Of a DNA stretch of 62,824 bases, positions 42,394-60,107 are shown one piece after another. This stretch comes from Candidatus Pacearchaeota archaeon (lineage in GTDB: Archaea > Nanobdellota > Nanobdellia > Pacearchaeales > GW2011-AR1): assembly GCA_018303925.1 (NCBI GenBank), contig JAGVXF010000010.1, positions 1-62,824 on the forward strand. The letters are read 5' to 3'. A program made the position numbers and the translations under genes. Position 1 is the stretch's first letter. The number at the start of each line of letters is the position of its first letter. The notes beneath the pieces were generated by a model. It had not been told where the DNA came from. It did no database searches and was given only the letters and a program-made list of their open reading frames with translations.

Positions 42394-44894
42394 TGACGGA
42401 TGAAAATTTAAATAAACCGCTGAAAAAATTAACAAACCTTAATATGAATATTAATCAATTGAAAGTCATTAAGGACAAATACCTTAAAGATTCTCCTACA
42501 GTGGAAGACTGGATAAGAGCAATTTGCCACAGCATTGCACTCTCTGAGATTCTTCATTCTGGAAAAGTAAGCGATGAAGAAATCTTTCGCGGAATTAACC
42601 ATGAAATCATTTCATATGATTCAATGGGAAAAACGGGAAAAATGTATTTACTTCATAAGGGGCTTGAGGATCATAATGAAAGAAAGAAAAATTTTAATAA
42701 ATTCATACAAAACCTGGAAGGAATAAATAAAAAATATCCCGAACTAATAAAAGAAACAGAAGAGAAATTTTACAATCTTTTATCAAGTTTTAATTTTTTG
42801 CCGAATTCCCCCACCTTAATGAATGCGGGAAGGGAACTTCAGCAGTTGTCGGCATGCTTTGTTTTACCTGTGGGTGATTCAATTGAAGAAATTTATGAAT
42901 CTTTGAAAAATATGGCTTTAGTTCACAAGAGCGGAGGAGGAACCGGGTTCTCATTTTCAAATTTGAGGCCCGCAAAAGATGTTGTGATTTCAACAAAAGG
43001 AATTTCTTCAGGCCCTCTTTCATTCATGCAGATTTTTGATAAGTCTACGGAAGTTGTCAAGCAGGGAGGTACAAGAAGAGGAGCAAATATGGGTATTCTT
43101 CATTACACGCATCCCGATATACTCAAGTTTATTGACATGAAAAAAACGCCGGGGGTTATGGAGAATTTTAATGTTTCTGTTACAATAGATGAAAGGTTCA
43201 TGAATGCAGTTAAAAATAACAAGGAATATGAATTAATTAATCCAAGAAGCCATGAGATTGCTGGAAAAATTAATGCAAAAGATGTCTGGGATAAACTCGT
43301 CAGAGGAGCCTGGGAGACAGGAGACCCCGGGATAATAATTATTGACAGAATAAACAATACAGGAAGTAATGCGACACCTCACCTTGGGCAAATTGAATCA
43401 ACGAATCCATGCGGTGAACAGCCTCTTTTGCCGTATGAGCCCTGTAATCTTGGCTCAATAAATCTTTCAAATTTTGTTGATGAGAACAAAAAAAATTTTG
43501 ACTATGAAAAACTAATTGAGACTGTAAAACTTTCGACAAGATTTCTTGATGATGTTATAGATGTAAATTGCTATCCTATCCCGAAAATTGAAGAAATCGC
43601 AAAAAAAACAAGAAGAATTGGTCTTGGGGTTATGGGATGGGCGGAAGCACTTGTTAAATTGAAAATTCCATACAATTCTCCTGAAGCCCTTCTTAAAGCT
43701 GAAGAATTAATGAAAGTGATAAATGAAACGTGCCTTGAGTATTCAAACGAGCTTGCAAAAACCCGGGGAGTTTTTCCTGCTTTTAAAGGAAGTGTTTATG
43801 ACAAAGAAGGTCCTTACTTTAGGAATTACGAAACTTATCCCAGACATTCAGCAAGAACAACAATTGCACCAACGGGGACAATTGCAATTACTGCGGGTCT
43901 GCAAGGGTCGGGAATTGAGCCGTTTTTTGCAGTTGCTTATGTGAGATATAATGCTGCCGGAATCGACGCTTTAAAAAAAGGAGAAACTCCTTCTGGGAAA
44001 GATACCTTTTTTGAAGTAAATCCACTTTTTGAAAAAATCGCCAGAGAAAACAATTATTTTGGTCTTAAAAAAGAAGACCTTTATATAAAAGTTAATGACA
44101 ATCACAAATCCTTATTGGGAATAAAAGAAATTCCTGAAAAAATTCAAAAATTGTTTTTAACTTCACACGATCTAAACCCAAGGGAGCACGTTTTGATGCA
44201 GTGCTCCTTTCAAAAATATACAGACAATGCAGTATCAAAGACTGTCAATTTAAGAAATGAAGCAACTGTTGAAGATGTTGACGAAGTTTACAGGCTTGCT
44301 TACGAAAACGGCGCGAAAGGTGTTACGATCTACAGGGATGGGAGTAAGCAATTTCAGATTCTAAACATTAATGAAAAGGGTAAAAAAGAAGTAAAAAAAG
44401 ATTTGCCCGAGTTTGCTGACTATTACCCGCTCGAAACAGGCCAGGGTCCGATTCATATACATATAAATTACAATGAAGAAAGAATTTCAAAGATTTTTGC
44501 AAATTTGTCCCCTATCGGAACTGAAATTTCAGGAATGGCAACGTCCCTCGCAATTGTTCTTTCAAAATATTTTGAGCTTGGCGGAGACCCTGTGAGAATT
44601 TTAAAGCATCTTAATTCTATAAAGTCAGAAAAGCCTTACGGCTTTGGAAAAAACAGAGTTGATTCAGTTCCACATGCTTTTTCAATAGCAATAAGAAATC
44701 ACCTGATAAAAACAGGAAAATTAAAATCCATAGACAATGGAAATGGTTTTTTATATGCCAACGGAGAAGTTGCAGAAATTGATAAAAATGTGAAGACTCT
44801 TTATTGCTCTAAATGTTTTAGCTCCAACGTCGGAATGATTTCAGGATGCACAGAGCCAACATGCTTTGACTGCGGGTATAGTAAATGCAGTTGA
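42393..44894 (+). CDS. nrdJ: Class II (adenosylcobalamin-dependent) ribonucleotide reductase
   Basis: NPCGEQPLLPYEPCNLGSINL active-site region, 833 aa, C-terminal Cys-rich tail CSKC...CTEPTCFDCGYSKC. Confidence 0.95.
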   Translation: MTDENLNKPLKKLTNLNMNINQLKVIKDKYLKDSPTVEDWIRAICHSIALSEILHSGKVSDEEIFRGINHEIISYDSMGKTGKMYLLHKGLEDHNERKKNFNKFIQNLEGINKKYPELIKETEEKFYNLLSSFNFLPNSPTLMNAGRELQQLSACFVLPVGDSIEEIYESLKNMALVHKSGGGTGFSFSNLRPAKDVVISTKGISSGPLSFMQIFDKSTEVVKQGGTRRGANMGILHYTHPDILKFIDMKKTPGVMENFNVSVTIDERFMNAVKNNKEYELINPRSHEIAGKINAKDVWDKLVRGAWETGDPGIIIIDRINNTGSNATPHLGQIESTNPCGEQPLLPYEPCNLGSINLSNFVDENKKNFDYEKLIETVKLSTRFLDDVIDVNCYPIPKIEEIAKKTRRIGLGVMGWAEALVKLKIPYNSPEALLKAEELMKVINETCLEYSNELAKTRGVFPAFKGSVYDKEGPYFRNYETYPRHSARTTIAPTGTIAITAGLQGSGIEPFFAVAYVRYNAAGIDALKKGETPSGKDTFFEVNPLFEKIARENNYFGLKKEDLYIKVNDNHKSLLGIKEIPEKIQKLFLTSHDLNPREHVLMQCSFQKYTDNAVSKTVNLRNEATVEDVDEVYRLAYENGAKGVTIYRDGSKQFQILNINEKGKKEVKKDLPEFADYYPLETGQGPIHIHINYNEERISKIFANLSPIGTEISGMATSLAIVLSKYFELGGDPVRILKHLNSIKSEKPYGFGKNRVDSVPHAFSIAIRNHLIKTGKLKSIDNGNGFLYANGEVAEIDKNVKTLYCSKCFSSNVGMISGCTEPTCFDCGYSKCS

Positions 44895-45008
44895 ACATCG
44901 CAATTAAGAGACCTGAAAGGCACAAGGCGAAGCACTCGTGAGTTTTTTCTGCAAGAAAAAATACTGAAGCGAAGCGTAGGTATAGTATGACGCAGGAATT
45001 TGTTTAGG
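44890..45008 (+). repeat. Degenerate attC-like site A (good left arm, poor right arm)
   Basis: GTTGAAC-ATCGCAATTAAGAG overlaps the nrdJ TGA and matches the left arms of sites D and F. The only candidate right end is GGAATTT-GTTTAGG. The interior holds two GCGAAGC motifs and a TTTTTTCT-GCA-AGAAAAAA hairpin. Confidence 0.35.
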
Positions 45009-45037
45009 TTTTTACTTATCAAGAAAGATATTTCACA

Positions 45038-45358
45038 CTATCTACTAACTTTTTTATCGATAAATATAGCAATGATATAGATAATAACTAAATTGATAAG
45101 AAACAATAATATTGAGAAATTAGCTCCGAATACCATATCATCTATTATATAAGTTGGTGTAAAGAAAGCGGGAAATCCAATTCCTAATTGTGAATTAAAA
45201 CAATTTGCAGAACTGGTTACACACCTTAGCATTATTGCAAAAGGTAATCCACTTAAGAATTATTCAAGAATGAAATTAATTATTGTTAATGCTAATAGAC
45301 TTAGGAATGAGTATGTAATCTTATTTTTATTCGGTTTAATTAATTCTTTCCAGTTCAT
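45038..45358 (-). pseudogene. Small membrane-protein ORF interrupted by an in-frame TAA (45260-45262)
   Basis: MNWKELIKPNKNKITYSFLSLLALTIINFILE-TAA-FLSGLPFAIMLRCV... is in one frame. The track only lists the distal 64 codons. Confidence 0.35.
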
Positions 45359-45450
45359 CTATACAAAAATATCCAATTACTTATTAATATTGATCGGTAA
45401 TTTCAATCTAAGTAAAAAAACCGTTAAGAATAAATTCTGAGTAATATTGT

Positions 45451-45554
45451 TTATAACGTCAGGGATATACGAAGTTTTTCTGGAGCGAAGCGGAAGAAAA
45501 ATTTGAGCGAAGCTCGAGTGGCAGAGCGAAGCGAAAGTCTGCAAGACGTTCCCA
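45451..45554 (+). repeat. Weak attC-like site B
   Basis: TTATAACGTCAGG...CTGCAAGACGTTCCC, where AACGTC and GACGTT are complementary. The interior carries three GCGAAGC motifs. The core boxes fit the RYYYAAC/GTTRRRY consensus poorly. Confidence 0.3.
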
Positions 45555-45597
45555 AAATCAGAATGATTTTGAGTTCAAAAAAGTGCGATACAATAAA

Positions 45598-45605
45598 TTT
45601 ATATA
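45598..45605 (+). promoter_or_regulatory. TATA box for ORF 45628
   Basis: TTTATATA lies 23 nt upstream of the ATG (leaderless-type spacing). Confidence 0.5.
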
Positions 45606-45627
45606 ATTCTTTAGAATTATCCTTTTT

Positions 45628-46137
45628 ATGGTAGAAATTGTTTTTCAAAGAAAGTATAAAGTAGATAGAGATTCTTTTTCCGAAGAAATAAGAACAAAAT
45701 TTAGTTTTGCTAATGAATATTTTGAAGTTTTGTTAAGTGAAACAGAAGGAGAATCGAAAAATACAGACAGTTTCATTCTAAAAATAATAAAAAGACAAAA
45801 CTTCAAAGAAGAATATACTAAGTTAAATGAAAAAGAAAAGGAATTTGCAAGAGATTTAATTTATACAATTATACAATTAAATCCAAAATTAATTGAAAAG
45901 AAATTTGTCCTGAATGCTCTTTCTAATGAAGAAGCAAAAGGGAAGAAAGCAATTATGAGTTCATTAGAATTGATTGACAAATTTCTTGAAGAAAAAGAAA
46001 AAAATAAAAATAATAAACAAATTCCTTTTCTTGAATCTCAAAACAAATTTTTTTGGATAATAACTGCGGTTGGAAAAAGAATCGTTTCAGCAAATTCTGA
46101 TTATATAGAAAAAAACAATTTCGTAAAAATACTCTAA
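45628..46137 (+). CDS. Hypothetical cassette protein
   Basis: 169-codon ORF, followed 20 nt later by attC-like site C. Confidence 0.45.
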   Translation: MVEIVFQRKYKVDRDSFSEEIRTKFSFANEYFEVLLSETEGESKNTDSFILKIIKRQNFKEEYTKLNEKEKEFARDLIYTIIQLNPKLIEKKFVLNALSNEEAKGKKAIMSSLELIDKFLEEKEKNKNNKQIPFLESQNKFFWIITAVGKRIVSANSDYIEKNNFVKIL

Positions 46138-46156
46138 GAGCACTTTTTTGAATTTC

Positions 46157-46246
46157 ATTTAACATCAGGATTATGAGAAGTTCGCCGTAGGCGAATTTAG
46201 GTGTAGCGAGGTGCAACCGAGCGAAACCGTTAAATCGCTGTTAGTT
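46157..46246 (+). repeat. attC-like site C
   Basis: ATTTAAC-ATCAGGATTATGAG...CCGTTAAATCGCT-GTTAGTT. The arms pair over about 10 bp with bulges on the left arm. Central TTCGCC-GTA-GGCGAA hairpin. Confidence 0.6.
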
Positions 46247-46251
46247 GCCCA

Positions 46252-46300
46252 CGAATACTTGGAGTGGTTGATTTTTAGTGCAACGATGCCGAAGGCAAAA
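46252..46300 (+). repeat. 49-nt conserved block, copy 1 (direct repeat of 50199-50247)
   Basis: CGAATACTTGGAGTGGTTGATTTTTAGTGCAACGATGCCGAAGGCAAAA; 47 of 49 positions are identical to copy 2. Confidence 0.9.
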
Positions 46301-46405
46301 TTTTAGAGTTAAAGCGAACTCTGGGATGGTGGGAACGCCAGAAATTTTTATAATATTTCAGATTGTCGCCGTCGTTTTCGTAAGTTGGGGGGCAGTAGTT
46401 TTTTG

Positions 46406-46428
46406 CTTCTTTTTTTCTAAAAAAGAAG
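46406..46428. repeat. T/A palindrome CTTCTTTTTT-TCT-AAAAAAGAAG followed by a G-run (block 2, copy 1)
   Basis: Perfect 10-bp arms. Related copies lie at 50303-50323 and 52289-52310, and an inverted degenerate copy at about 49817-49845. Confidence 0.85.
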
Positions 46429-46474
46429 AATTTTTGAGGGGGTTTCGGTCGTCACTATATAATGGGCCAAAAGA

Positions 46475-46482
46475 TTTAAATA
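46475..46482 (+). promoter_or_regulatory. TATA box for the RHH-methyltransferase operon
   Basis: The context CCAAAAGATTTAAATA is conserved with 50347-50363. Confidence 0.5.
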
Positions 46483-46526
46483 TAATGCTCATTTATTTAC
46501 ATTTGTATTCAAATGAGGGAAATAAA

Positions 46527-46667
46527 ATGGTTCAAAAAAATGTGACTCTAAGTCTTGATGAAGACACTTACGAAAAATATAGAGAATTTTGTAAGAAAAA
46601 TGCTGTTGCCTTATCAAGAAGTATAGAAGTATTCATGGAAGAAAAAACAAAAAGGGGGGAAAAATGA
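46527..46667 (+). CDS. Ribbon-helix-helix (CopG/controller-like) protein
   Basis: MVQKNVTLSLDEDTYEKYREFCKKNAVALSRSIEVFMEE fits a beta-strand plus two-helix RHH pattern. It overlaps the methyltransferase start. The upstream part of track ORF 46278-46667 is repeat DNA. Confidence 0.55.
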   Translation: MVQKNVTLSLDEDTYEKYREFCKKNAVALSRSIEVFMEEKTKRGEK

Positions 46668-48265
46668 GCCAAGAACTTTTATCAGTAGGTCAGGCATCTC
46701 AATGGGCGAGTGATTATTTAGACAGACCCGTGACTACTTCCAATATTAGTTATTTAATCCAGTACGCAAAAATTAAGAAATATCTTGATGAAGAAAAGAA
46801 AATAAAAGTCAATCTAAATGAATTAAAAGAATATTATGATGAAAATTTAGTAAAAAAACAAGAGTCATGGAAAAGCCAATTAGGGAAAGATTTAAACTGG
46901 GCATTATCTTTCTCGCATTTAAGAGAATCTGATACGACAAAACACGTTCATAGACTACACCCCTATAAAGGAAAGTTTATACCTCAACTTGTAGAATATT
47001 TCTTGGATTCTCATCTAAACACTTTTAAGAAAAAGGTCTTTTTTAAAGAAGGTAATATAATTCTTGACCCATTTATGGGAAGCGGAACAACGCTCGTTCA
47101 ATCATCCGAGATAGGTTTACATTCCATTGGGATAGATGTTTCTGATTTTAATTGTTTAATTTCCAAAGTTAAAATTGAAAAATATGATTTAGTTAGATTG
47201 GATAGAAAAGCAAGAGACATTTGTTTTAAAACAAGAGAATTTAGCCAAAAAGTATTTGATGATTCATTTGATGAACAATTAAAAGAAAAATTAAACGAAT
47301 TTAATAAAAAATATTTTCCTAATCCTGAGTTTAAGAGTAATGTTTGGAAAGGTATAATTAGAAACGAAGAACAATATGGGGAAGAAAAGTTAAAGCAGTT
47401 TCTAAAGGAAAATGAAGAATTTTTTAAAAAGAATGGAACAAAAGACAAATCTAACTTATTAAGTGAAAAAGAGATGAATAATTTTCTCAATAAGTGGTTT
47501 TCAAGAAGAGTAAGACAAGAATTATTTTATTATATAAAACTTTTAAGGGAAATTGGGGATGAAGACTTAAAAAATGTTCTAAGAATTATTTTAAGTAGAA
47601 CTGCTCGTTCGTGTAGGGCTACAACCCACTCGGATTTAGCGACATTAACAGAACCTCAAAATGGACCATATTATTGTAGAAAACACAAGAAATTATGCAC
47701 CCCGATAAACTCTATTGTTAAACACTTAATAAGATACACTTATGACACAATAAACAGATTAAATGAGTTTTCTAAATTAAAAAAAAGTGTATTTAGTAAT
47801 GTTATTCATGGAGATTCAAGAGAAGTAGATATTTTTGGAGAAATCAAAACGCAAAATCCTGAATTTTACAAGTTTTTAGTAAATAAAAAAATAGATGGAG
47901 TTTTTACTTCTCCGCCTTATGTTGGTCAAATAGATTACCATGAACAACACGCTTATGCTTATGAGCTTTTTGATATTGCAAGAAAAGATGATAAAGAAAT
48001 AGGCCCTTTATTCAACGGACAAGGACAGAAAGCAAGGGAGGAATATGTTAAAGGGATAAGCAAAGTTTTCATAAATATAAGTAAATTTGTAAAAGATGAT
48101 GGAGACTTTTTTGTTGTTGCAAATGATAAATATAATCTTTATCCTATAATTGCTGAAAAAAGCGGATTAAAAATAGTAGAACAATTTAAAAGACCTGTTC
48201 TAAACCGAACAGAGCGAGATAGACAACCTTATGCAGAGATTATATTTCATATGAGAAAAAAGTAA
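46664..48265 (+). CDS. Type II DNA methyltransferase (N4-C or N6-A, SPPY type; motif I precedes motif IV)
   Basis: HRLHPYKGKFIPQL and LDPFMGSGTT (motif I) lie near aa 95-155. VFTSPPYVGQIDY (motif IV) lies near aa 415. Confidence 0.85.
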   Translation: MSQELLSVGQASQWASDYLDRPVTTSNISYLIQYAKIKKYLDEEKKIKVNLNELKEYYDENLVKKQESWKSQLGKDLNWALSFSHLRESDTTKHVHRLHPYKGKFIPQLVEYFLDSHLNTFKKKVFFKEGNIILDPFMGSGTTLVQSSEIGLHSIGIDVSDFNCLISKVKIEKYDLVRLDRKARDICFKTREFSQKVFDDSFDEQLKEKLNEFNKKYFPNPEFKSNVWKGIIRNEEQYGEEKLKQFLKENEEFFKKNGTKDKSNLLSEKEMNNFLNKWFSRRVRQELFYYIKLLREIGDEDLKNVLRIILSRTARSCRATTHSDLATLTEPQNGPYYCRKHKKLCTPINSIVKHLIRYTYDTINRLNEFSKLKKSVFSNVIHGDSREVDIFGEIKTQNPEFYKFLVNKKIDGVFTSPPYVGQIDYHEQHAYAYELFDIARKDDKEIGPLFNGQGQKAREEYVKGISKVFINISKFVKDDGDFFVVANDKYNLYPIIAEKSGLKIVEQFKRPVLNRTERDRQPYAEIIFHMRKK

Positions 48266-48266
48266 T

Positions 48267-48980
48267 TTATTTTTCCATCCTTTCTAGTGTTATTTCTGGG
48301 AGTCCAAATTTATCAGCTAATAAAATATAAAATCCTTCTGTTAAAACATTTAATTCATTTATTTCCATCATGAATTTGACTAAGGGCATCTCTCTAGGGT
48401 TTGTATCGAATATATCGGAACACAACTTTAACTTTCCACCTTGACCATGTTCCCAAAAGAAAGTATAATGTGTAAGGGAATTCCTTGTTCCAGAATCAAA
48501 ATAATTTAGATATTTGTTTGTAGAATATTTTTGTTTTAGGAAATTGATAGCGTTTCCAATACCATGGATTTCTTTATGATTCTTCCCAAATTTTTTCCAA
48601 TCAATAAAGAATAAAAAATAAATTTTTAATCTCTCTAAAAAAGTAACATATGTGTTTACCAAGATAGAATGATAATGTTCTCCCAATCTAAAAGTGTCTC
48701 CAATATTAAATGCTTTTTTTAAGCATTCTAATTTTTCTTCAGTTTCTTTTTTATTGCTTGAATTAAATACTGAACCAAAATCTTTAGATAATTTTAAAGC
48801 CATATTACAACTTTTTGTAATATTCTGTAATCTTGTTACCTGTTCTTCTGAGAAATTTCTTAACAAAAGTCCATCTGAATCAAGATTATTAATTAGTTCC
48901 TTAATTGAGATTTCATAATCTTCAAAAAATTTTCTTAATCCGCTTCCCATCCCAGATTTAAAATTTTCGATGCTTGTCAT
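48267..48980 (-). CDS. Hypothetical helical protein in the R-M module with an Rx4H motif (possible HEPN-like)
   Basis: GTRNSLTHYTFFW contains R-x4-H. It is co-oriented and contiguous with the putative endonuclease gene. Confidence 0.35.
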   Translation of the reverse strand: MTSIENFKSGMGSGLRKFFEDYEISIKELINNLDSDGLLLRNFSEEQVTRLQNITKSCNMALKLSKDFGSVFNSSNKKETEEKLECLKKAFNIGDTFRLGEHYHSILVNTYVTFLERLKIYFLFFIDWKKFGKNHKEIHGIGNAINFLKQKYSTNKYLNYFDSGTRNSLTHYTFFWEHGQGGKLKLCSDIFDTNPREMPLVKFMMEINELNVLTEGFYILLADKFGLPEITLERMEK

Positions 48981-49754
48981 TTAAACATCCATTTTCTTTT
49001 CAGCAACTTCTTTTATCTTATTCTGTATTTTTTCCTTAAACTCTTTACCAACTTCATCAAAGATTTCTAAAACTTCTTCATAAGTTCCTTTTCCACCAAG
49101 AAGTTCCCAGAATTTTTCAGCAACATAAAGCTCTTTTTCTTCATCCAAAAATCCTTGCATTGTAAATCTGTTATATGGTTCTGGATGATAAGGATTATAA
49201 GGAATAGCCAAAATTGTATTTACTTTCTTTTTTCTGAGTGCAACCCATTCCAATAACTTCTGCTTTGATTTAACAAAAACATCTATATTGGGTTTTGCTG
49301 TTTTTATCTCAATATAATATTCATCATTGCCTTTCTTTAAGAATAAATCGGCTCTGACTTTTATTTTTCTTCCACCATTTTTGTTACATTGCAAAATATC
49401 TTTTATTTCTTTTTCTTTATTTGCAGTTCTTGTTCCATTCTTTATTTCTTGAAGAATCTGGGAAATTACAGAGTTCTCTTCATTTGTAATTTCTCCCTCA
49501 ACATCATAACCAGTTTTTACTTCATCGTAATGAGCTAATGCGACAATTTCAGAAATTTTCTCATAAACTGACATTCCCAATGTTGTAGCTAATGAATGTA
49601 TGAAAGAATAAGAAGCTACTTTTTCGGAATCTTGCATAAGTTTAACCAAAAAAGGCATAGAGGTTGTTTCTCTTACATATTTGGACAACTTGTCATTTAG
49701 TTTTGACCTTAGCAAATTCTTGATTTCGTTAATTTGATTTTCATTGAGTGTCAT
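48981..49754 (-). CDS. Putative type II restriction endonuclease (PD-(D/E)XK; possibly TdeIII-like)
   Basis: VRADLFLKKGNDEYYIEIKTAKPN gives a D...E-x-K catalytic pattern. It is convergent with the methyltransferase. Confidence 0.5.
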   Translation of the reverse strand: MTLNENQINEIKNLLRSKLNDKLSKYVRETTSMPFLVKLMQDSEKVASYSFIHSLATTLGMSVYEKISEIVALAHYDEVKTGYDVEGEITNEENSVISQILQEIKNGTRTANKEKEIKDILQCNKNGGRKIKVRADLFLKKGNDEYYIEIKTAKPNIDVFVKSKQKLLEWVALRKKKVNTILAIPYNPYHPEPYNRFTMQGFLDEEKELYVAEKFWELLGGKGTYEEVLEIFDEVGKEFKEKIQNKIKEVAEKKMDV

Positions 49755-49865
49755 CTTAATAAGAAAGATTGCCTTTTATTTATAAATGCTATTATTTACG
49801 TAACCGAAACCCCCTCTTTCTTTAATAAAAAACAAGAAAAATATTTGGGTGCAACGAAGTGAAAC

Positions 49866-49926
49866 CTCTTATCGTTTGTTAGGCGAAATTTTAATTTCGT
49901 GAGTTCTCTCGTTGGTTCGATAAGAG
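49866..49926 (+). repeat. Family-2 hairpin, copy a (GTTAGGC in the loop)
   Basis: CTCTTATCG-ttt-GTTAGGC...(33 nt)...CGATAAGAG with a perfect 9-bp stem and an inner GAAAT/ATTTC hairpin. Confidence 0.6.
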
Positions 49927-50065
49927 AAGTATTTTTCTGTTTTTACAATCGAGCAAACCACAGTTTGCGAGACTATCTGTCGCGTGAGCGACTTCGAGCC
50001 GATCCCCTAATTTTTCTGAAAGAAAAATATTCGTAATCGTTTTCGAGCCCACCGAGTAATATGTC

Positions 50066-50193
50066 GCCTAACATCGCGATTAAGCGACCCGTAGGGCTCG
50101 GGCGGAGTGAAACGACCCCGAGTGTTTTTGCGAAGCAAAAATATGGGTGGAAAAACCTGCAAGGTTTTGGAACCGCTTAATCTGCTGTTAGTT
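50066..50193 (+). repeat. attC-like site D
   Basis: GCCTAAC-ATCGCG-ATTAAGCG...CGCTTAAT-CTGCT-GTTAGTT. The centre holds four small hairpins, including TTTTTGCGAAGCAAAAA and AAAACC-TGCA-AGGTTTT. Confidence 0.7.
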
Positions 50194-50198
50194 TCTCC

Positions 50199-50247
50199 CG
50201 AATACTTGGAGGGATTGATTTTTAGTGCAACGATGCCGAAGGCAAAA
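50199..50247 (+). repeat. 49-nt conserved block, copy 2
   Basis: CGAATACTTGGAGGGATTGATTTTTAGTGCAACGATGCCGAAGGCAAAA. Confidence 0.9.
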
Positions 50248-50302
50248 AATCAAAGTCGTCGTGTCTATTGTTTTTTATGGGGGTTTACGCCGCCGTTTTT
50301 TG

Positions 50303-50323
50303 CTTCTTTTTTTAAAAAAGAAG
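50303..50323. repeat. T/A palindrome CTTCTTTTTT-T-AAAAAAGAAG plus G-run (block 2, copy 2)
   Basis: Perfect 10-bp arms, followed by GTGGGG. Confidence 0.85.
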
Positions 50324-50355
50324 AGTGGGGATTTCCGTTTAATGACCAAAAGATA

Positions 50356-50363
50356 TTTAAATA
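50356..50363 (+). promoter_or_regulatory. TATA box for the ArsR operon
   Basis: TTTAAATA lies 24 nt upstream of the ATG at 50387. Confidence 0.5.
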
Positions 50364-50386
50364 TTAGCTTATTCTAATACAAGAAT

Positions 50387-50701
50387 ATGAAAGAACTATA
50401 TGAAATTCATGCTGAAATGTGCAAAGTATTTTCAAATTCAACAAGGTTGGAAATATTGAATTTATTGAGAGATAAAGAATTATCAGTAACAGAATTGATA
50501 AAAAAGACAAGATTAAGTCAAGCCAATATCTCCCAGCATTTGTCAATTATGAAATCCAAAGGAATTGTTGTCTCAAATAGAAAGGGCAAGAATATCTATT
50601 ACAGACTCACAAATCCAAAAATAATCAAAGCATTTGATATAATAAGAGATGTTTTGGCTGAAAAATTAAAGAAAAATGGGAAATATGTTAAAAACTTATG
50701 A
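50387..50701 (+). CDS. ArsR/SmtB-family HTH regulator
   Basis: FSNSTRLEILNLL...ELSVTELIKKTRLSQANISQHLSIMKSKGIV winged-HTH pattern. Confidence 0.85.
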   Translation: MKELYEIHAEMCKVFSNSTRLEILNLLRDKELSVTELIKKTRLSQANISQHLSIMKSKGIVVSNRKGKNIYYRLTNPKIIKAFDIIRDVLAEKLKKNGKYVKNL

Positions 50702-50710
50702 GGTGCTAGA

Positions 50711-51274
50711 ATGAAAAAGATATTTACAATCTTGATTTTCGGTATGTTGTTATTAAGTGTAAGTTTAGTTTTTGCTCACGAACATGATTTTAATGAAACA
50801 AAACAAATTATAAATTCTGGAATTAGTTGCGATAAACTCACAGATGAACAGCTTGAATCCATTGGTGATTATTATATGGAGCAAATGCACCCTGGCGAAG
50901 CCCATAAGATGATGGATCAAATGATGGGTGGAGAAGGTTCTGAAAGTTTAAGACAAGTACAGATTAACATGGCAAAACGGCTTTATTGTAATGAAGATAT
51001 CGGAGGAATGATGGGTGGTGGCATGATGAATATGATGATGGGAAATAATATGATGGGAAACTATCCAGCATATTATGGTTATAATAATTTTTGGAATGTA
51101 CTTTGGATGGTTTTTTTAATAGGAGCAATTGCGCTGATAGTTTGGCTGATTTATAAATTTACAAAAAAAGGGAAAGAATCTGAAACTCCAATTAATATTT
51201 TACAGAAAAGATATGCTAAAGGAGAAATAAACAAAAAACAATTTGAGGAAATGAAAAAGGGGTTAAGGAAGTGA
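50711..51274 (+). CDS. Secreted Met/Gly-rich protein with a TM anchor and a C-terminal SHOCT domain
   Basis: Signal-like N-terminus, MMGGGMMNMMMGNNMMG tract, one TM segment, then ILQKRYAKGEINKKQFEEMKKGL (SHOCT-like). Confidence 0.6.
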   Translation: MKKIFTILIFGMLLLSVSLVFAHEHDFNETKQIINSGISCDKLTDEQLESIGDYYMEQMHPGEAHKMMDQMMGGEGSESLRQVQINMAKRLYCNEDIGGMMGGGMMNMMMGNNMMGNYPAYYGYNNFWNVLWMVFLIGAIALIVWLIYKFTKKGKESETPINILQKRYAKGEINKKQFEEMKKGLRK

Positions 51275-51582
51275 GGCTCATGGAAAAAGATAAAAGCACA
51301 TTGGTATGGATTTTCATTGCTGTAATTGTTGTTCTTTTTTTCATAGGAAGTTTTGGAATGGGCAGTTATGGTATGATAGGTTTCGGAATGGGATTTGGAT
51401 TTATTTTCATGTTGCTTTTCTGGGGTCTTATTATATGGCTTATAGTCACTTTAATCAATACGAGCCAATCCAATAAAAGTGAGCCAGATTCATTAACAAT
51501 CCTAAAAAGAAGATATGCTTCTGGAGAAATCACAAAGAGGCAATATGAAGAAATGAGGAAGGAATTAAACATCGGAATTTAA
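51271..51582 (+). CDS. Small membrane protein with a C-terminal SHOCT domain
   Basis: Two TM segments and ILKRRYASGEITKRQYEEMRKEL. The last codons lie inside attC-like site E. Confidence 0.6.
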   Translation: MRLMEKDKSTLVWIFIAVIVVLFFIGSFGMGSYGMIGFGMGFGFIFMLLFWGLIIWLIVTLINTSQSNKSEPDSLTILKRRYASGEITKRQYEEMRKELNIGI

Positions 51583-51652
51583 CGAAGTCGCCAAAGGCGA
51601 TTTGGGTGGAGAAGCCTGCAAGGTTTCGGAACCGTTAAATTTCCTGTTAGTT
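51564..51652 (+). repeat. attC-like site E
   Basis: ATTAAAC-ATCGG-AATTTAACG...CGTTAAATT-TCCT-GTTAGTT with a 9-bp perfect inner stem. The centre has TCGCC-AAA-GGCGA and the CCTGCAAGG hairpin shared with site D. Confidence 0.7.
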
Positions 51653-51719
51653 GCGTCTTTTCGTAGAAAAGACCTAGGGATAGTGCAACGATTTTTGCGA
51701 AGCAAAAAATCCCGAAGAG

Positions 51720-51734
51720 TTTAGAATTACCACA
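51720..51734. repeat. Left copy of a 15-bp perfect inverted repeat bracketing ORF 51735-52010
   Basis: TTTAGAATTACCACA. The reverse complement lies at 52046-52060. Confidence 0.9.
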
Positions 51735-52010
51735 CTATCGTTTTTTATATTTCAATTTTAATGCTAAAATTAGAATTATTGCACAAGATACAAAATTTAA
51801 TCCTGTAACAATTTCCAACAATAAATCAGAGATTACTAAAAGTGCATAAAGAAAAGTAATAAGACTACAAAAAGTCCAAATGATGTAAGAATTGATATTT
51901 GCACTTGCTATTTTTTTCATTAAATCTCTTATTGTTGGAAAGTATCCTATCGTTGCAATAATTCCTGTACTCGCATAAAGAAAGGCAATAATTGTTAATA
52001 TGAATTCCAT
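51735..52010 (-). CDS. SemiSWEET/PQ-loop-like 3-TM protein
   Basis: 91 aa with three hydrophobic helices. GYFPTIRDLMKK sits at the position of the PQ motif. Resembles the 20013-20369 product in layout. Confidence 0.5.
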   Translation of the reverse strand: MEFILTIIAFLYASTGIIATIGYFPTIRDLMKKIASANINSYIIWTFCSLITFLYALLVISDLLLEIVTGLNFVSCAIILILALKLKYKKR

Positions 52011-52045
52011 AATACATTTATTAAAATTGAAATGAATATAAAGTT

Positions 52046-52060
52046 TGTGGTAATTCTAAA
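52046..52060. repeat. Right copy of the 15-bp perfect inverted repeat
   Basis: TGTGGTAATTCTAAA is the reverse complement of 51720-51734. Confidence 0.9.
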
Positions 52061-52064
52061 TTGC

Positions 52065-52201
52065 AACTAACATCGCGATTAAGAGAAGTTGTTTGCAGTA
52101 ACTTTAATCTATAAATAGGCAAACAATTTGGGCTAATTTCTGGTTTTCACTAAGAAAATTTGCGAAGCAAAAAGAAATTACCTCTTAATCTGCTGTTGCT
52201 T
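52065..52201 (+). repeat. attC-like site F
   Basis: AACTAAC-ATCGCG-ATTAAGAG...CTCTTAAT-CTGCT-GTTGCTT. The arms are as in site D, with a compensatory C:G to A:T change. The centre differs (TTGTTTGC/GCAAACAA hairpin and TTTGCGAAGCAAA). Confidence 0.7.
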
Positions 52202-52288
52202 GACCGAACGAAGTGAGGCACGAGTGGAGCAAGAAGCGACCTCGTGAGTTTTAATTTTTCTTTCAGGGTGGGGCCCGCCCGCTTTTTG

Positions 52289-52310
52289 TTTCTTTTTTTC
52301 TAAAAAGAAA
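52289..52310. repeat. T/A palindrome TTTCTTTTT-TTCT-AAAAAGAAA plus G-run (block 2, copy 3)
   Basis: Perfect 9-bp arms, followed by ATGGGGGAG. Confidence 0.8.
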
Positions 52311-52323
52311 ATGGGGGAGTTTT

Positions 52324-53007
52324 TTATCTTCCAATTTTTTGTAAAAATTCTTCTCTTGTAATTTCTTTAAGAGTCTTCAAATCAAGATAATAATTCTTTG
52401 GTTCAACTTCAACTTGCATTGACAAAGAATTTATTTTACCGCAATCACATTCTATAACATAAAAATTAGGTGTGTCAGAAGTGTAGCTCATTAAGTTACC
52501 CCCACATTTAAGAGAACATATTTCGTTTGATTCTGAATTAGTAAGAACACTTGTCTTAGGATAACCTTTTTGATTAGCCAATTCTATAAATGAATTTTCT
52601 GCCTTAATGGTTTGAGAATTTTCAACAATACCATTAATCTTATTTGAAATTGAGGGATAGAATTGTAAGGATAGAACGATAATAATTAATAATACTATGA
52701 AAGATAACCAAAAGAATCCTTTTCTATTCTGTATTTTATATTTGTTTTTATGATAATCATCTTGAGATAAGGATTTAATTGACCAATAAATTTTCTTTCC
52801 ATTAAACATACAGATTAGCAAAATAAGAGGAATTGATATCATCAAAGCAGTAGCAGAATTATGATTAAATCCCAATGTCCTAATGTAATTATATGATAAA
52901 TATAATAAAAAGATTAAAAATCCAACAACGAAAAGATAAACAATCATCTTGTATTTTTCTTCTTGTTCTTCCCTTGTAATAAGTCTAACTTTAATAGGTT
53001 CTGCCAT
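52324..53007 (-). CDS. Hypothetical multi-TM protein with a Cys-containing extracytoplasmic C-terminal domain
   Basis: Four hydrophobic segments, then a soluble domain with CSLKCGG...CDCG. Confidence 0.5.
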   Translation of the reverse strand: MAEPIKVRLITREEQEEKYKMIVYLFVVGFLIFLLYLSYNYIRTLGFNHNSATALMISIPLILLICMFNGKKIYWSIKSLSQDDYHKNKYKIQNRKGFFWLSFIVLLIIIVLSLQFYPSISNKINGIVENSQTIKAENSFIELANQKGYPKTSVLTNSESNEICSLKCGGNLMSYTSDTPNFYVIECDCGKINSLSMQVEVEPKNYYLDLKTLKEITREEFLQKIGR

Positions 53008-53059
53008 AAAATAAATAGAAAAGCCAAACTTAATAAATATATGCTTCTAATTTGATTTT

Positions 53060-53269
53060 ATGGAACTAAAAAAACAAAAAGAAATTAGACAACACAAAGC
53101 AAATTTAGGCATAGGTGTTGCTGGAGGATTTGTCGCTGGTGGGAGTTTGCTTGCTTATCAAATATTAATACCATATGGTTTGGGTTATGCTCTTCTGGGA
53201 GCGGTTTTTGTTGCTTTAGTTATCTATAAAATGTCAGTTAAGATGATAGAGAAAAATGTTAATCGCTAA
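53060..53269 (+). CDS. Small 2-TM membrane protein
   Basis: 69 codons, Gly/Ala-rich helices. Confidence 0.4.
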   Translation: MELKKQKEIRQHKANLGIGVAGGFVAGGSLLAYQILIPYGLGYALLGAVFVALVIYKMSVKMIEKNVNR

Positions 53270-53315
53270 AACTCCCCCTAAATAAATAGAAAAATTTGGG
53301 AGAGCGACAGCGAAC

Positions 53316-53379
53316 CTTTTATCCATTGTTATGCAAAGTGCAAAGCATTTTGTTGTTTTTCTCGTCGGTCGGATAAAAG
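53316..53379 (+). repeat. Family-2 hairpin, copy b (GTTATGC in the loop)
   Basis: CTTTTATCC-att-GTTATGC...GGATAAAAG with a 9-bp stem. Two positions differ from copy a and both are compensated. Confidence 0.6.
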
Positions 53380-53496
53380 AAGTTTTTCTCTGAAACGAAG
53401 TTTCAGCTATCTGTCCGAAGGACTGCGGGCAATCTCTCACTATCTTTGGGCGGGAAAGAAAGAAAAATTAAAATTTGGGCGAAGCCAAGCAACATA

Positions 53497-53526
53497 AGAT
53501 TATCAATAGTTTATTATTGATAATCT
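53497..53526. other. Perfect 12-6-12 palindrome; candidate recombinase core site (dif/attI-like) or operator
   Basis: AGATTATCAATA-GTTTAT-TATTGATAATCT. It ends 25 nt upstream of the recombinase TATA box. Confidence 0.55.
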
Positions 53527-53551
53527 CCTAATTGGGCATGGAAACAATAAA

Positions 53552-53559
53552 TTTAAATA
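53552..53559 (+). promoter_or_regulatory. TATA box for the recombinase gene
   Basis: TTTAAATA lies 23 nt upstream of the ATG at 53582. Confidence 0.5.
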
Positions 53560-53581
53560 ATCGTCTTTCAATCGAATTTTA

Positions 53582-54397
53582 ATGAATGGACTGAGATTAA
53601 AATTAAAAAGAGAACTTGAAATAAGAAATTTTTCTAATCAGACTGTTAAAGCGTATCTTTATTCGGTTGATAAATTTGTGGAATTTTCTAAAGGAAAAGG
53701 ACTAAATGAAGATTCAATTAAAGACTATATTCAAAAAGGTCTTGAAAACAAAAATCCAACGAGTGTTAGAAGGGATTTATTTGCAATTAAATTTTTCTTT
53801 GAAAAGGTATTAAAGCAAAAGGTAAACATCCCAAACCCAAAGAAAAATAAGACTCTCCCGGAGATTCTCACAATTGAAGAAATAAAAAAATTAATCGAAT
53901 CTGCAAATAATATCAAACACCGATTAATAATCAAACTTCTTTATGGATGCGGATTAAGAGTTTCTGAGATTGTAAACCTTAAAGTAAATGATTTGAACTT
54001 TGTTGAAGAATTAATTAAAATAAATCTTGCAAAAGGAAAAAAAGACAGATTTGTTAAGATACCTTCATCAATAAAAGATGAACTTGAAAGTTATTTAAAA
54101 TTAAATAAGCATAATACTTTATTTCCTTCAAATAGAGGTGGAAAATTAACAAAAGATACTATTCAAAAAATTGTTCAAAACTCTGCTAAAAGAGCAGGAA
54201 TTAAAAAAAGAGTTTATCCACATTTATTGAGGCATAGTTTTGCAACGCATCTTCTTGAACAGGGGACGGATTTAAGAATGATTCAAAAATTGCTTGGTCA
54301 TTCTGATATAAAAACCACTCAAATTTATACTCAAATTTCCCAAGCTTCAATAAAAAATATAAAAAGTCCGCTTGATAATTTACAATATGGCAAGTAA
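53582..54397 (+). CDS. xerA: Xer-type tyrosine recombinase (XerA/XerC/XerD-like; no IntI-specific insertion)
   Basis: N-terminal SAM-like core-binding domain, GLRVSEI (box I Arg), KGKKDR, HLLRHSFATHLL and LLGHSDIKTTQIYTQ (His and Tyr). Only about 40 aa lie between KGKKDR and HLLRH. Confidence 0.9.
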   Translation: MNGLRLKLKRELEIRNFSNQTVKAYLYSVDKFVEFSKGKGLNEDSIKDYIQKGLENKNPTSVRRDLFAIKFFFEKVLKQKVNIPNPKKNKTLPEILTIEEIKKLIESANNIKHRLIIKLLYGCGLRVSEIVNLKVNDLNFVEELIKINLAKGKKDRFVKIPSSIKDELESYLKLNKHNTLFPSNRGGKLTKDTIQKIVQNSAKRAGIKKRVYPHLLRHSFATHLLEQGTDLRMIQKLLGHSDIKTTQIYTQISQASIKNIKSPLDNLQYGK

Positions 54398-54722
54398 AAA
54401 CAAATTATTGTGGGAGATTCTGATCCCAAAGTTTTCAAATGATGGAAAAGAATTTGAAATCGAATTTCACAAAAAATGGGACAAAAAAATCGGGAAAATT
54501 TCGGGGGGGCTGACTATCCTTAGGACTGCAAAAGGGCACTGGATAAATCCTGATAAAAAACTTTTTTCCGAAGAAATGATTCCTGTCAGAATATACTGTT
54601 CTGAAAAGGAAATTGGAAAGATTATGAAATTCACACTTGAACATTATACTCAGGATGCAGTATTTTGCTATCTGGTGAGTAATAAAATTAAAATACTAAA
54701 TAAAAACAAGAATTTGACTTAA
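54387..54722 (+). CDS. Hypothetical protein overlapping the recombinase stop (operon partner)
   Basis: Start set at MASKNK; 112 codons. Confidence 0.4.
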   Translation: MASKNKLLWEILIPKFSNDGKEFEIEFHKKWDKKIGKISGGLTILRTAKGHWINPDKKLFSEEMIPVRIYCSEKEIGKIMKFTLEHYTQDAVFCYLVSNKIKILNKNKNLT

Positions 54723-54781
54723 AAACGTTTGCGTGGCGAAAGGCTTAAATAAGTCTCTTAATTTGATATAATAAGGTAACA

Positions 54782-54846
54782 GGTATTGCCTTAAGTCTTC
54801 GGACATACCGCAAGCGTGTTCCCGGTTATTACTTCGGTAATACCGG
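54782..54846 (+). ncRNA. Candidate small structured RNA or leader: two UUCG-tetraloop hairpins
   Basis: GGTAT...GTC-TTCG-GAC-ATACC (54782-54809) and CCGGT(T)ATTAC-TTCG-GTAATACCGG (54822-54846). TATA-like TTAAATA lies at 54745-54751 and a T-rich tract ATTTTATT follows. Confidence 0.35.
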
Positions 54847-54857
54847 ATTTTATTAAA

Positions 54858-55421
54858 ATGGTAAAAAGAGTTTCTATTTATATTGATGGTGTGAATTTTG
54901 TTTATGGTTTGAAATCTTTAAACCCAAAATATTCAGATTATCATTTTGACTTTGAAAATTTTATTAAAAAGATTGTTGGAGAAAATGATTTAATTAATAT
55001 TTTCTACTATAATGCTTCCTTGAAACAATCAGTTAATCCGAGAAGATTTAAGGAACAGCAAAAACTTCTCGCAAGACTAAAGAAGATAACAAAATGTAAA
55101 GTCATTTTATGTAAAAGACAAAAGAGATTTAACAAAGATGACGAAGAATATTATACAATTAAAGGTGATGACATTAATTTAGCTTTAGATGTGTTAAATG
55201 ATGCGTGGGAAAATAAATATGATAAAGCAGTTCTATTTTCAGGAGATAGAGATTTTGCTCCCTTGTTGAAATATGTTAAGAATAAAAATAAGAAGGTGGA
55301 GGTTCTTTCTTTTGATGAATTATCTTCAAGAAATTTGCTTAACGAAGCCGACAAATTCACATTCATTGATAAGAAAACAGTTAATAAGTTCTTTTGGAGA
55401 GGAATTGTAGATAAAAAATAA
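54858..55421 (+). CDS. NYN-domain (LabA/DUF88-like) putative RNase
   Basis: VSIYIDGVNFVYGL at the N-terminus and SGDRDFAPLL. Start moved to the ATG at 54858. Confidence 0.7.
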   Translation: MVKRVSIYIDGVNFVYGLKSLNPKYSDYHFDFENFIKKIVGENDLINIFYYNASLKQSVNPRRFKEQQKLLARLKKITKCKVILCKRQKRFNKDDEEYYTIKGDDINLALDVLNDAWENKYDKAVLFSGDRDFAPLLKYVKNKNKKVEVLSFDELSSRNLLNEADKFTFIDKKTVNKFFWRGIVDKK

Positions 55422-59990: not shown

Positions 59991-60107
59991 GGCTCCGTAG
60001 CTCAGCCTGGTTAGAGCACCGGACTTTTAAGCGAAACAAGTTTTGCATACTTCGCAAAAATTCGCAAAGAGATCCGGGTGTCGAGGGTTCAAATCCCTTC
60101 GGGGCCA
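59991..60107 (+). tRNA. tRNA-Lys (TTT) with a 42-nt intron in the anticodon loop
   Basis: Acceptor GGCTCCG/CGGGGCC, D arm GCTC-AGCCTGGTT-AGAGC, anticodon stem CCGGA/TCCGG with loop CTTTTAA. The intron spans about 60031-60072. T arm GAGGG-TTCAAAT-CCCTT. Confidence 0.85.

Follow-up and report, generated by a model that had tools for sequence, protein, structure and literature searches.

A covarying palindrome between xerA and an integron-like cassette array in Pacearchaeota-type archaea: a candidate attI-like platform

Integrons are defined by a specialised integrase, IntI. Here we consider a locus in which a 30-nucleotide palindrome stands between an archaeal xerA gene and an array of integron-like cassettes, on a groundwater metagenome contig from a Pacearchaeota-type DPANN archaeon (JAGVXF010000010.1; positions 1 to 62,824, the whole stretch of DNA analysed, are called the window). 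In archaea, a survey of integrons in 75 genomes reported six IntIs, all with the IntI-specific domain, and 539 attC sites, most of them in CALINs, that is, clusters of attC sites without an integron integrase gene nearby, including those of Nanoarchaeota; the putative attI sites were placed immediately downstream of intI (Ghaly et al. 2022, PMC9668308). In the literature searched we found no paper that links XerA with attC arrays. We propose, with a probability of roughly 0.55, that the palindrome, in the role of attI, forms the unchanging part, on the recombinase side, of a composite site-specific recombination site which links xerA to the array. The elements of this site, from the array towards the gene, are as follows:

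53491 to 53496, forward strand: AACATA, with the conserved AAC(AT) core (AAC at 53491-53493), the junction and putative crossover, with cassette DNA to its left and the palindrome to its right.
53497 to 53526, no strand: the perfect palindrome AGATTATCAATA-GTTTAT-TATTGATAATCT, the fixed, xerA-side element of the site.
53542 to 53549, forward strand: a third arm-like copy, AAACAATA (compare the arm, TATCAATA), in direct orientation at the B recognition element (BRE) of the xerA promoter, the element just upstream of an archaeal TATA box; a candidate operator half-site.
53552 to 53559, forward strand: the TATA box of xerA, TTTAAATA, read from the sequence, with a predicted promoter function.
53582 to 54397, forward strand: xerA, encoding a 271-amino acid tyrosine recombinase of the archaeal XerA family without the IntI-specific insertion, as judged from NCBIfam and comparison with PDB structures.

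The recombinase passed the NCBIfam equivalog model for archaeal XerA (NF040815, recomb_XerA_Arch) with 249.7 bits against a cut-off of 220, but stayed below that for the integron integrase (TIGR02249, 213 bits, cut-off 265), where its match was split in two stretches, and at 100 bits against a cut-off of 267 for NF003462 it is not an XerS. Among solved structures, XerA of P. abyssi (4a8e, 4e-48) and of T. acidophilum come closest and IntI4 of V. cholerae next, the best two entries, 4a8e and 5hxy, both being XerA; approximately 42 residues of IntI4, which belong to the IntI-specific domain (2a3v chain 200-241), were left unmatched in the alignment. The protein is an Xer-family recombinase, as expected of an Xer/dif system, and is not an IntI with an IntI-specific domain. 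Since it is a XerA equivalog without that insertion, the locus is not a canonical integron.

In its layout, however, the locus resembles an integron platform: the 5' side of a tyrosine recombinase gene faces a cassette array, the cassettes are set apart by imperfect hairpins, 70-150 nt long, which have unpaired bases, AAC...GTT cores and a uniform polarity, and a special site lies beside the recombinase gene where the array meets fixed DNA, with the putative junction in an AAC/GTT triplet. Besides the recombinase, it departs from an integron in that; 1) the attI-like site, 2-3 nt from the junction, is a palindrome that is perfect or nearly so and can form a hairpin, whereas the attI of integrons is an L/R simple site with DR1 and DR2; 2) the unpaired bases of the attC-like sites lie beside the R box on the junction side, without extrahelical bases in the L box; 3) the cassette open reading frames (ORFs) run in both directions and many cassettes have long conserved non-coding leaders; and, 4) the site is upstream of xerA, whereas in the archaeal integrons of Ghaly et al. 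(PMC9668308) the putative attI is downstream of intI.

The XerA/dif systems of P. abyssi, Sulfolobus and T. acidophilum (PMC2958812, PMC8371274) share with this locus the recombinase family, an inverted repeat with 11-12-bp arms around a 6-bp centre and, for many of the orthologous sites described below, A-rich inner arm ends (ATAA/TTAT). Known archaeal dif sites, however, lie apart from xerA and are highly conserved, whereas here the arms are variable and covary, the site adjoins xerA and the visible junction is outside the spacer. In the XerS/difSL system of streptococci and lactococci a single Xer has its presumed site beside its gene, as one module (PMC2958812), but difSL is an asymmetric 31-bp, FtsK-dependent terminus site without a cassette array or hairpin partners, and XerS is only distantly related to the XerA of the window. 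A further parallel is offered by CTX-phi-type IMEX elements, mobile elements that use the Xer system of their host, in which a folded single-stranded DNA hairpin recombines with the double-stranded Xer site and successive integrations build an array (PMC5357621). There, however, attP imitates dif and the crossover falls at the spacer of dif, while here the hairpins are unlike the palindrome, the junction is outside the spacer and the cargo consists of small cassettes and not of phages.

A preliminary description of this DNA had drawn attention to the palindrome, and its sequence and arm complementarity are exactly as claimed there: the arms AGATTATCAATA (53497-53508) and TATTGATAATCT (53515-53526) are fully complementary and enclose the spacer GTTTAT (53509-53514). 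The same holds for the TATA box, which lies 25 nt past the palindrome, with the ATG at 53582. The suggestion that the geometry is that of a tyrosine recombinase core site also agrees with our analysis, as a perfect 12-6-12 repeat beside a gene of the XerA equivalog family fits an Xer core site (approximately 28-30 bp, with two inverted arms of about 11 bp and a centre of 6-8 bp); most orthologues have the same geometry and many have CATAA-N6-TTATG inner arms, as dif does. No other perfect inverted repeat in the window reaches 12 nt with a spacer of at most 12 nt, the runners-up being 10-nt low-complexity repeats, but Markov-1 sequences of the window's length and composition are expected to contain a mean of 0.52 repeats of this class, with at least one in 32% of them. 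We consider that the window by itself gives the palindrome no significance, and that the case for its being real is carried entirely by the comparison of orthologous loci.

Other features that might have been expected around the palindrome were not found. The 12-nt half-site has 23 matches in the window with up to two mismatches, which is no enrichment over the 18.1 +/- 4.2 expected, and the half-sites that the preliminary description had proposed to look for at module boundaries are absent, as is the GC-skew switch it had proposed to look for at the site, although the absence of an extremum of cumulative skew at 53.5 kb is weak negative evidence in a window as short as 63 kb. There are no further dif-like sites in the 62.8-kb window. 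A short complete attC was rejected as an identity for the palindrome, which has no mirror-image GTT on its right side, and a terminator was rejected because there is no run of T after the hairpin on either strand. Searches against Rfam, at gathering thresholds over the whole window and permissively over 53200-54900, returned only tRNAs and noise, with no match to a known RNA family for the palindrome or for the GC-richer element upstream of it.

To compare loci, XerA proteins 60-85% identical to that of the window were taken from species-representative genomes and metagenomes, giving 58 distinct upstream regions from Pacearchaeota-type DPANN archaea (loci labelled L0xx and L1xx). In approximately 50 of these 58 regions xerA is preceded, at the corresponding position, by an equivalent inverted repeat with this geometry, which upholds the earlier proposal of a site that accompanies the recombinase gene and is conserved with it. 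At the best symmetry centre, 41 of the 58 have at least 11 of 13 positions complementary, as against 2% of shuffles, and this centre is 59-84 nt, mostly 69-75 nt, upstream of the xerA ATG. The palindrome of the window ends 55 nt before the ATG and the arrangement is alike in about 50 orthologous loci, so the presumed site is directly adjacent to the gene of its single recombinase, as in a module of the XerS/difSL type.

The two arms of these sites covary. In 45 distinct 30-mers Watson-Crick pairing holds for 479 of 540 arm cells, compared with 272 +/- 14 when partners are permuted. In the 40 distinct ungapped 30-mers, from which five long-stem sites were left out as they had been misaligned by MAFFT, 91.3% of positions are paired (62.7 +/- 1.5% in shuffles and 22-53% in controls in which the arms were slid), both sides have changed in 11 of 12 pairs and the covariation score is 0.665 against 0.148. 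Between the window and L013 the change can be seen directly, as one clean double substitution from A-T to G-C. Lineages have their own arm types (AGATTATCAATA, ATGGTATCATAA/ATGGTATCATGA, ATCATATCATAA/ATCATATCGCAA, ACGGCATATCTA, GCGGAAAACGAA and GTAATCCCAA, with ATTGGATATGGAAATT in the long-stem type), yet some sequence is held in common: the position adjoining the spacer is an A in 40 of 45 sites, and positions 5-8, counted from the spacer, read TATC in 31-35 of them. Because the inner A and TATC are conserved in sequence, the element appears to be more than a structure, and it looks like a site that is read by a symmetric protein. It should be noted that this arrangement of AAC and palindrome is absent from more distant homologues of 42-48% identity (Woesearchaeota, Bacteroidota and Nitrospirota).

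Just outside the left arm of the palindrome, fixed DNA gives way to interchangeable DNA. In 43 of 45 sites an AAC, mostly as AACAT, stands 2-5 nt, most often 2-3 nt, to the left of the stem, and the sequence beyond it varies independently of the palindrome. A flank ending in tttgggcgaagccaagcAAC (gccaagcAAC) is joined to six different palindromes (those of the window/L119, L017, L099, L103, L114 and L126) and another, ending in aaaattgaaactAAC (tgaaactAAC), to four (L035, L028, L106 and L117), while four or more different left flanks are found beside the palindrome of the window (the window, L035 and L128, plus L091 and L092 with the spacer flipped). Pairs of loci whose xerA coding DNA is only 69-79% identical share 89-96% identity over the 100 nt left of AAC, and their palindromes differ at up to 17 of 30 positions. 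Moreover, a cassette end at 50045-50072 (...gtcgcctAACAT) is followed by an attC-like body in the window, whereas in L026 it abuts the palindrome. Since left flanks and palindromes combine freely and switch at AAC, the placing of the recombination junction within AACAT, outside the palindrome, 3 nt beyond its left arm and 15 nt from its spacer, appears well supported. The cassette junction would be at AAC (53491-53493) and not in the spacer. Strand exchange at the borders of the central region, as known for Xer/dif, is not what the visible events indicate, as all of the junctions that can be deduced fall at AAC. Dimer resolution, for its part, leaves no footprint and could still take place by exchange in the spacer.

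The ends of the assembled contigs point to the same place. Contigs L012, L015 and L021 start exactly at AAC and L100 starts 3 nt before it, and of approximately 62 orthologue contigs, 15 break off in the last 300 nt before xerA, whereas 3 end in xerA or just after it. This is what assemblers would do at a polymorphic or repeated junction, and it suggests population-level heterogeneity or repeats there. Further contigs that end near AAC are L011, L019, L020, L030, L097, L098, L101, L105, L116, L120 and L124.

In the long-stem clade the distance from AAC to the stem stays at 2-3 nt while that from AAC to the centre rises from 18 to 20-21 nt, and this constancy mildly favours a geometry anchored on structure, the clade being represented by 3-5 related sequences. 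Two other short motifs surround the junctions. An ATTG five nt before AAC (AAATTG-N5-AAC) is conserved at cassette ends, for example at 52055-52071 in the window and in L-series loci, and the DNA past the closing GTT of attC-like sites tends to N5-6-CCCG or CCTG, which is not complementary to the ATTG flank; in the array, the motifs TTGGG and ATTG-N5-AAC are enriched only about two-fold.

The spacer shows a different kind of variation. Across the orthologues it is usually N-TTTA-N or its complement N-TAAA-N, and sites with identical arms have either GTTTAT (the window, L013, L035 and L128) or its exact reverse complement ATAAAC (L091, whose XerA is 84% identical and whose flanks are nearly identical, L092, L093 and L119), with TTAAAC in L125 and GTAAAC in L012. 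The flipped 30-mers lie at L091:2916-2945 and L092:1640-1669, and a flip of the spacer is equivalent to one of the whole 30-mer. The loops of hairpin-forming palindromes are known to flip. The leading GTT of the spacer, which had been singled out in the preliminary description, is therefore not a conserved feature, and as a crossover point it was rejected, since the spacer flips and varies.

To the left of the junction lies the array, the features of which are as follows:

44894 to 53493, no strand: the whole variable array, 8.6 kb of mixed cargo from the ribonucleotide reductase gene (which ends at 44894) to the palindrome.
46161 to 46242, forward strand: a degenerate attC-like site, TTAACATCAGGATTATGAG ... 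CGTTAAATCGCTGTTAG, with a weak fold (z = -1.8).
50068 to 50191, forward strand: attC-like hairpin CTAACA-TC-GCGATTAAGCG ... CGCTTAATC-T-GC-TGTTAG (single-stranded DNA fold -30.1 kcal/mol, z = -4.7), whose left flank is the one joined to the palindrome in L026.
51566 to 51650, forward strand: attC-like hairpin AAACA-TCGG-AATTTAACG ... CGTTAAATT-TCC-TGTTAG (single-stranded DNA fold z = -1.9).
52067 to 52199, forward strand: attC-like hairpin CTAACA-TC-GCGATTAAGAG ... CTCTTAATC-TGC-TGTT (single-stranded DNA fold z = -5.4).
53290 to 53493, forward strand: an ORF-less structured element of about 205 nt, the cassette end now joined to the palindrome, which ends at the AAC junction.

The cargo comprises a HinfI-like restriction-modification pair, an ArsR gene with two SHOCT genes, small membrane ORFs and ORF-less GC-richer segments, and these are separated by imperfect hairpins of the form of that at 50068-50191. 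A pattern scan for such hairpins around the orthologous xerA genes found 35 on the upstream side, where 94 kb were covered, but only 2, both dubious, in the 159 kb on the downstream side; at least one is present in 19 of the 30 loci that have at least 1 kb of upstream sequence. All of the sites of the scan have their extra unpaired bases towards AAC, as read on the xerA-sense strand, so that polarity is uniform; as far as a pattern scan can tell, then, these are arrays of attC type, with imperfect hairpins, AAC/GTT cores and unpaired bases. They open in the same way as the xerA-proximal site, with AACA, 2-3 unpaired nt and a stem. Where attC-like bodies are duplicated (L024, 3461/3674; L091, 114/2533) the right flank is kept and the left flanks differ, which implies that the body moves with the xerA-proximal segment and that the junction is on the AAC side. 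In addition, the segments nearest to xerA have complementary ends, with GTTGCTTGAC at 52195 matched by GCCAAGCAAC at 53484 and GTTAGTTGC at 51646 by GCAACTAAC at 52063, as the closing of an extended R-box by a circular cassette would lead one to expect.

The ORF-less element of about 205 nt is 89-96% identical in L099, L119 and L126, where it stands beside different palindromes, and in L092 it stands beside an attC body, although the xerA DNA of the genomes that share it is only about 70-79% identical. Its predicted stems (CTTTTATCC/GGATAAAAG and a hairpin with a GAAG loop) show compensatory changes, and it has no match in Rfam. As the commonest cassette end at the palindrome it is found in 7 of the 58 loci. 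Copies lie at L099:2706-2917 and L092:770-981 and in L103, L114, L119, L126 and L017, and the window has a diverged second copy at approximately 49830-50067.

Other parts of the array can be described briefly. The restriction-modification pair forms a cassette-like segment (46664-49754), with an N6_N4 methyltransferase at 46664-48265 on the forward strand and the HinfI-like endonuclease at 48981-49754 on the reverse strand, and fits a defence cargo. Conserved non-coding leaders follow attC-like sites: an 87-nt segment with 83% identity (GAATACTTGGAG..TTGATTTTTAGTGCAACGATGCCGAAGGCAAAA) occurs at 46223-46309 and 50170-50256, and about 80-150 nt past this leader there is a repeated GC-rich stretch with a CTTCTTTTTT/AAAAAAGAAG hairpin, at 46396-46433, 50293-50330 and 52279-52316, which coincides with the 10-nt perfect inverted repeats of the window. 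These leaders could possibly be cassette promoters, terminators or small RNAs.

A link between the palindrome and the attC arms had also been suggested through the shared strings AGATTA and GATTA. In the window this stands, with CAGCAGATTAAG (reverse complement CTTAATCTGCTG) at 50176 and 52184 and GCGATTAAG at 50076 and 52075, but as a general rule it was rejected, being absent in other genomes. There the attC L-boxes stay GCGATTAAGAG-like where the palindrome arms differ, for example as GGATAT or TGGTATC, and because the L-boxes are unchanged while the arms differ the likeness in the window is probably a coincidence.

Taken from the cassette side, the composite site that we propose consists of a cassette end, usually with ATTG-N5; an AAC-AT-N that contains the junction; an arm of 12-16 bp, an AT-rich centre of 4-6 nt (TTTA or TAAA) and the complementary arm; and then about 15 nt with a GGG, the third arm-like copy at the BRE, the TATA box and the probably leaderless xerA. 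A XerA dimer would bind both arms, or XerA would bind the extruded hairpin or cruciform, and would exchange strands in the AACAT core with a folded attC-like site, so that cassettes could be inserted or removed beside its own gene; with its start 2-3 nt past AAC, the stem of the palindrome may mimic the L-stem of the attC-like hairpins. Recognition assisted by structure is plausible, because P. abyssi XerA, which binds dif strongly, also binds more weakly to the stem-loops of unrelated att sites (PMC8371274, citing PMC2958812). XerA is put forward as the acting enzyme as the sole conserved protein in the neighbourhood. Of the three readings offered by the preliminary description, that of an attI equivalent into which modules are recruited fits best, as the palindrome sits where conserved DNA meets the variable attC-like array; it is compatible with the same palindrome also acting as dif, as it may in an organism with a single Xer, and with the palindrome and the third copy at the BRE forming an autoregulatory operator, as they may.

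Several points weigh against this proposal. The role of XerA is argued from conserved adjacency only, and a crossover outside the spacer is unlike a simple Xer or Cre-type core site and would leave the need for both arms unexplained. From genome to genome the attC L-boxes do not change along with the palindrome arms, and sequence recognition of one kind by one protein could therefore not serve both. Judged by bacterial attC, the unpaired bases are, relative to the junction, on the unexpected arm, so that the polarity rules of integrons may not be simply transferable, and the presence of cassette ORFs on both strands is unlike typical integrons. As to the statistics, palindrome sites were located by maximising symmetry, which inflates the pairing somewhat, the sequences are related by descent, so that shuffles overstate their independence, and the attC-like scan used an ad hoc stem-plus-TGTT pattern and not IntegronFinder, scans by global alignment having been insensitive.

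The strongest alternative, which we nevertheless regard as unlikely, is that the palindrome is primarily a chromosomal dif, with a XerA dimer on its arms and crossover in the 6-bp spacer, and that the array accumulates alongside it as IMEX elements do at bacterial dif. In its geometry the 12-6-12 repeat does resemble bacterial and archaeal dif, with their 11-6-11 (PMC2958812, PMC8371274), the recombinase is a XerA equivalog with ordinary chromosomal genes on its 3' side, and the window has a single copy of the palindrome and no other dif-like site. Many orthologues have TCATAA-N6-TTATGA inner arms, and the P. abyssi dif arm, ATTGGATATAA, opens with the ATTGGATAT that the long-stem clade carries. 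Yet the conserved outer motifs are 14-18 bp apart here, against 10 bp in P. abyssi dif (ATTGGATATAA-TCGGCC-TTATATCTAAA), and at a recombinase identity of 60-85% the arms (45 distinct 30-mers) diverge far beyond any known dif, those of Thermococcales being nearly invariant (PMC2958812). The position beside the gene can be taken either way, as XerS too is encoded beside its site (PMC2958812) whereas the dif of Thermococcales is not beside xerA. The lack of a cumulative GC-skew extremum at 53.5 kb also speaks against a dif, short as the window is for this purpose, and every visible footprint of recombination is at AAC, with none in the spacer.

Less probable again is a role in the transcription of xerA, in which the palindrome would be the operator or activator site of a dimeric regulator, or a mimic of BRE and TATA box, and the AAC junction a separate neighbour. 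The position of the palindrome is consistent with this, since it is fixed at about -55 to -85 from the start, just upstream of BRE and TATA box; equivalent TATA boxes (TTTATATA/TTTAAATA) are present in the orthologues and, with the ATG 22 nt downstream of the TATA box, the xerA mRNA is probably leaderless. Conservation of TATC within the arms would suit a protein-binding site, and the inner arm with the spacer resembles the xerA promoter, TATCATAAATTTT occurring twice in L016. The third arm-like copy tracks the arm type between lineages (ACAATA, TATCATAA, GTAACC or AACGAAG) and matches the arm at 8 of 8 positions in L016, L102 and L109; on average, though, an arm matches its own promoter at 5.94 of 8 positions as against 5.69 +/- 0.09 with arms permuted, which is modest support, and several lineages have no such copy. 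A TATA-like spacer that occurs in both orientations among close relatives would be awkward for a directional promoter, no conserved candidate regulator gene is found nearby, and a control element would leave unexplained both the constant 2-3 nt to AAC and the parallel with the stems of attC-like sites. Finally, although 0.52 such repeats are expected per random window, a functionless chance palindrome in AT-rich intergenic DNA is very improbable and is refuted by the equivalent repeat with covarying arms at the same place in about 50 independent orthologous loci.

With regard to the xerA promoter, ACAATA-N-TTTAWAT has just two matches in the window. One is ACAATAAATTTAAATAA, at 53544 in the promoter itself, and the other is ACAATAAATTTATATAA (45585-45610), upstream of the cassette ORF at 45628-46137, the two having nearly the same BRE/TATA string and being the only matches to it. 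On the 3' side of xerA the chromosomal genes differ between lineages, with synteny in patches and no site-like motif, and no partner gene downstream of xerA is conserved in the orthologous loci past the closest relative. An ORF of 111 amino acids (54387-54722) overlaps the 3' end of xerA by 11 nt, is kept only in that closest relative, L091, and has a weak, sub-threshold match to an S-AdoMet lyase family (E = 0.002). Further on, a 117-nt tRNA match at 59991-60107 (Rfam, 57 bits), which ARAGORN did not report, is probably an intron-containing archaeal tRNA.

On our reading of these sequences, the locus and its approximately 50 orthologues set attC-like arrays directly against the universal archaeal XerA gene, parted from it by a covarying hairpin site and a precise AAC junction. 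From this we advance a broader hypothesis, more tentatively than the attI-like role itself and at somewhat less than even odds, that in Pacearchaeota-type DPANN archaea the housekeeping XerA itself runs integron-like gene capture, with the palindrome near its own promoter as the docking site and exchange in the AACAT core. If so, the near-absence of IntI from archaeal attC arrays, almost all of which are CALINs, would be accounted for, and the system would provide a route from Xer/dif to integrons without the IntI-specific domain. Were XerA the enzyme, gene capture in these minimal-genome archaea would use the machinery of chromosome resolution, the missing integrase of archaeal CALINs would be identified for this clade, and the evolutionary link between Xer/dif, IMEX and integrons would become testable with one small protein and a few short oligonucleotides.

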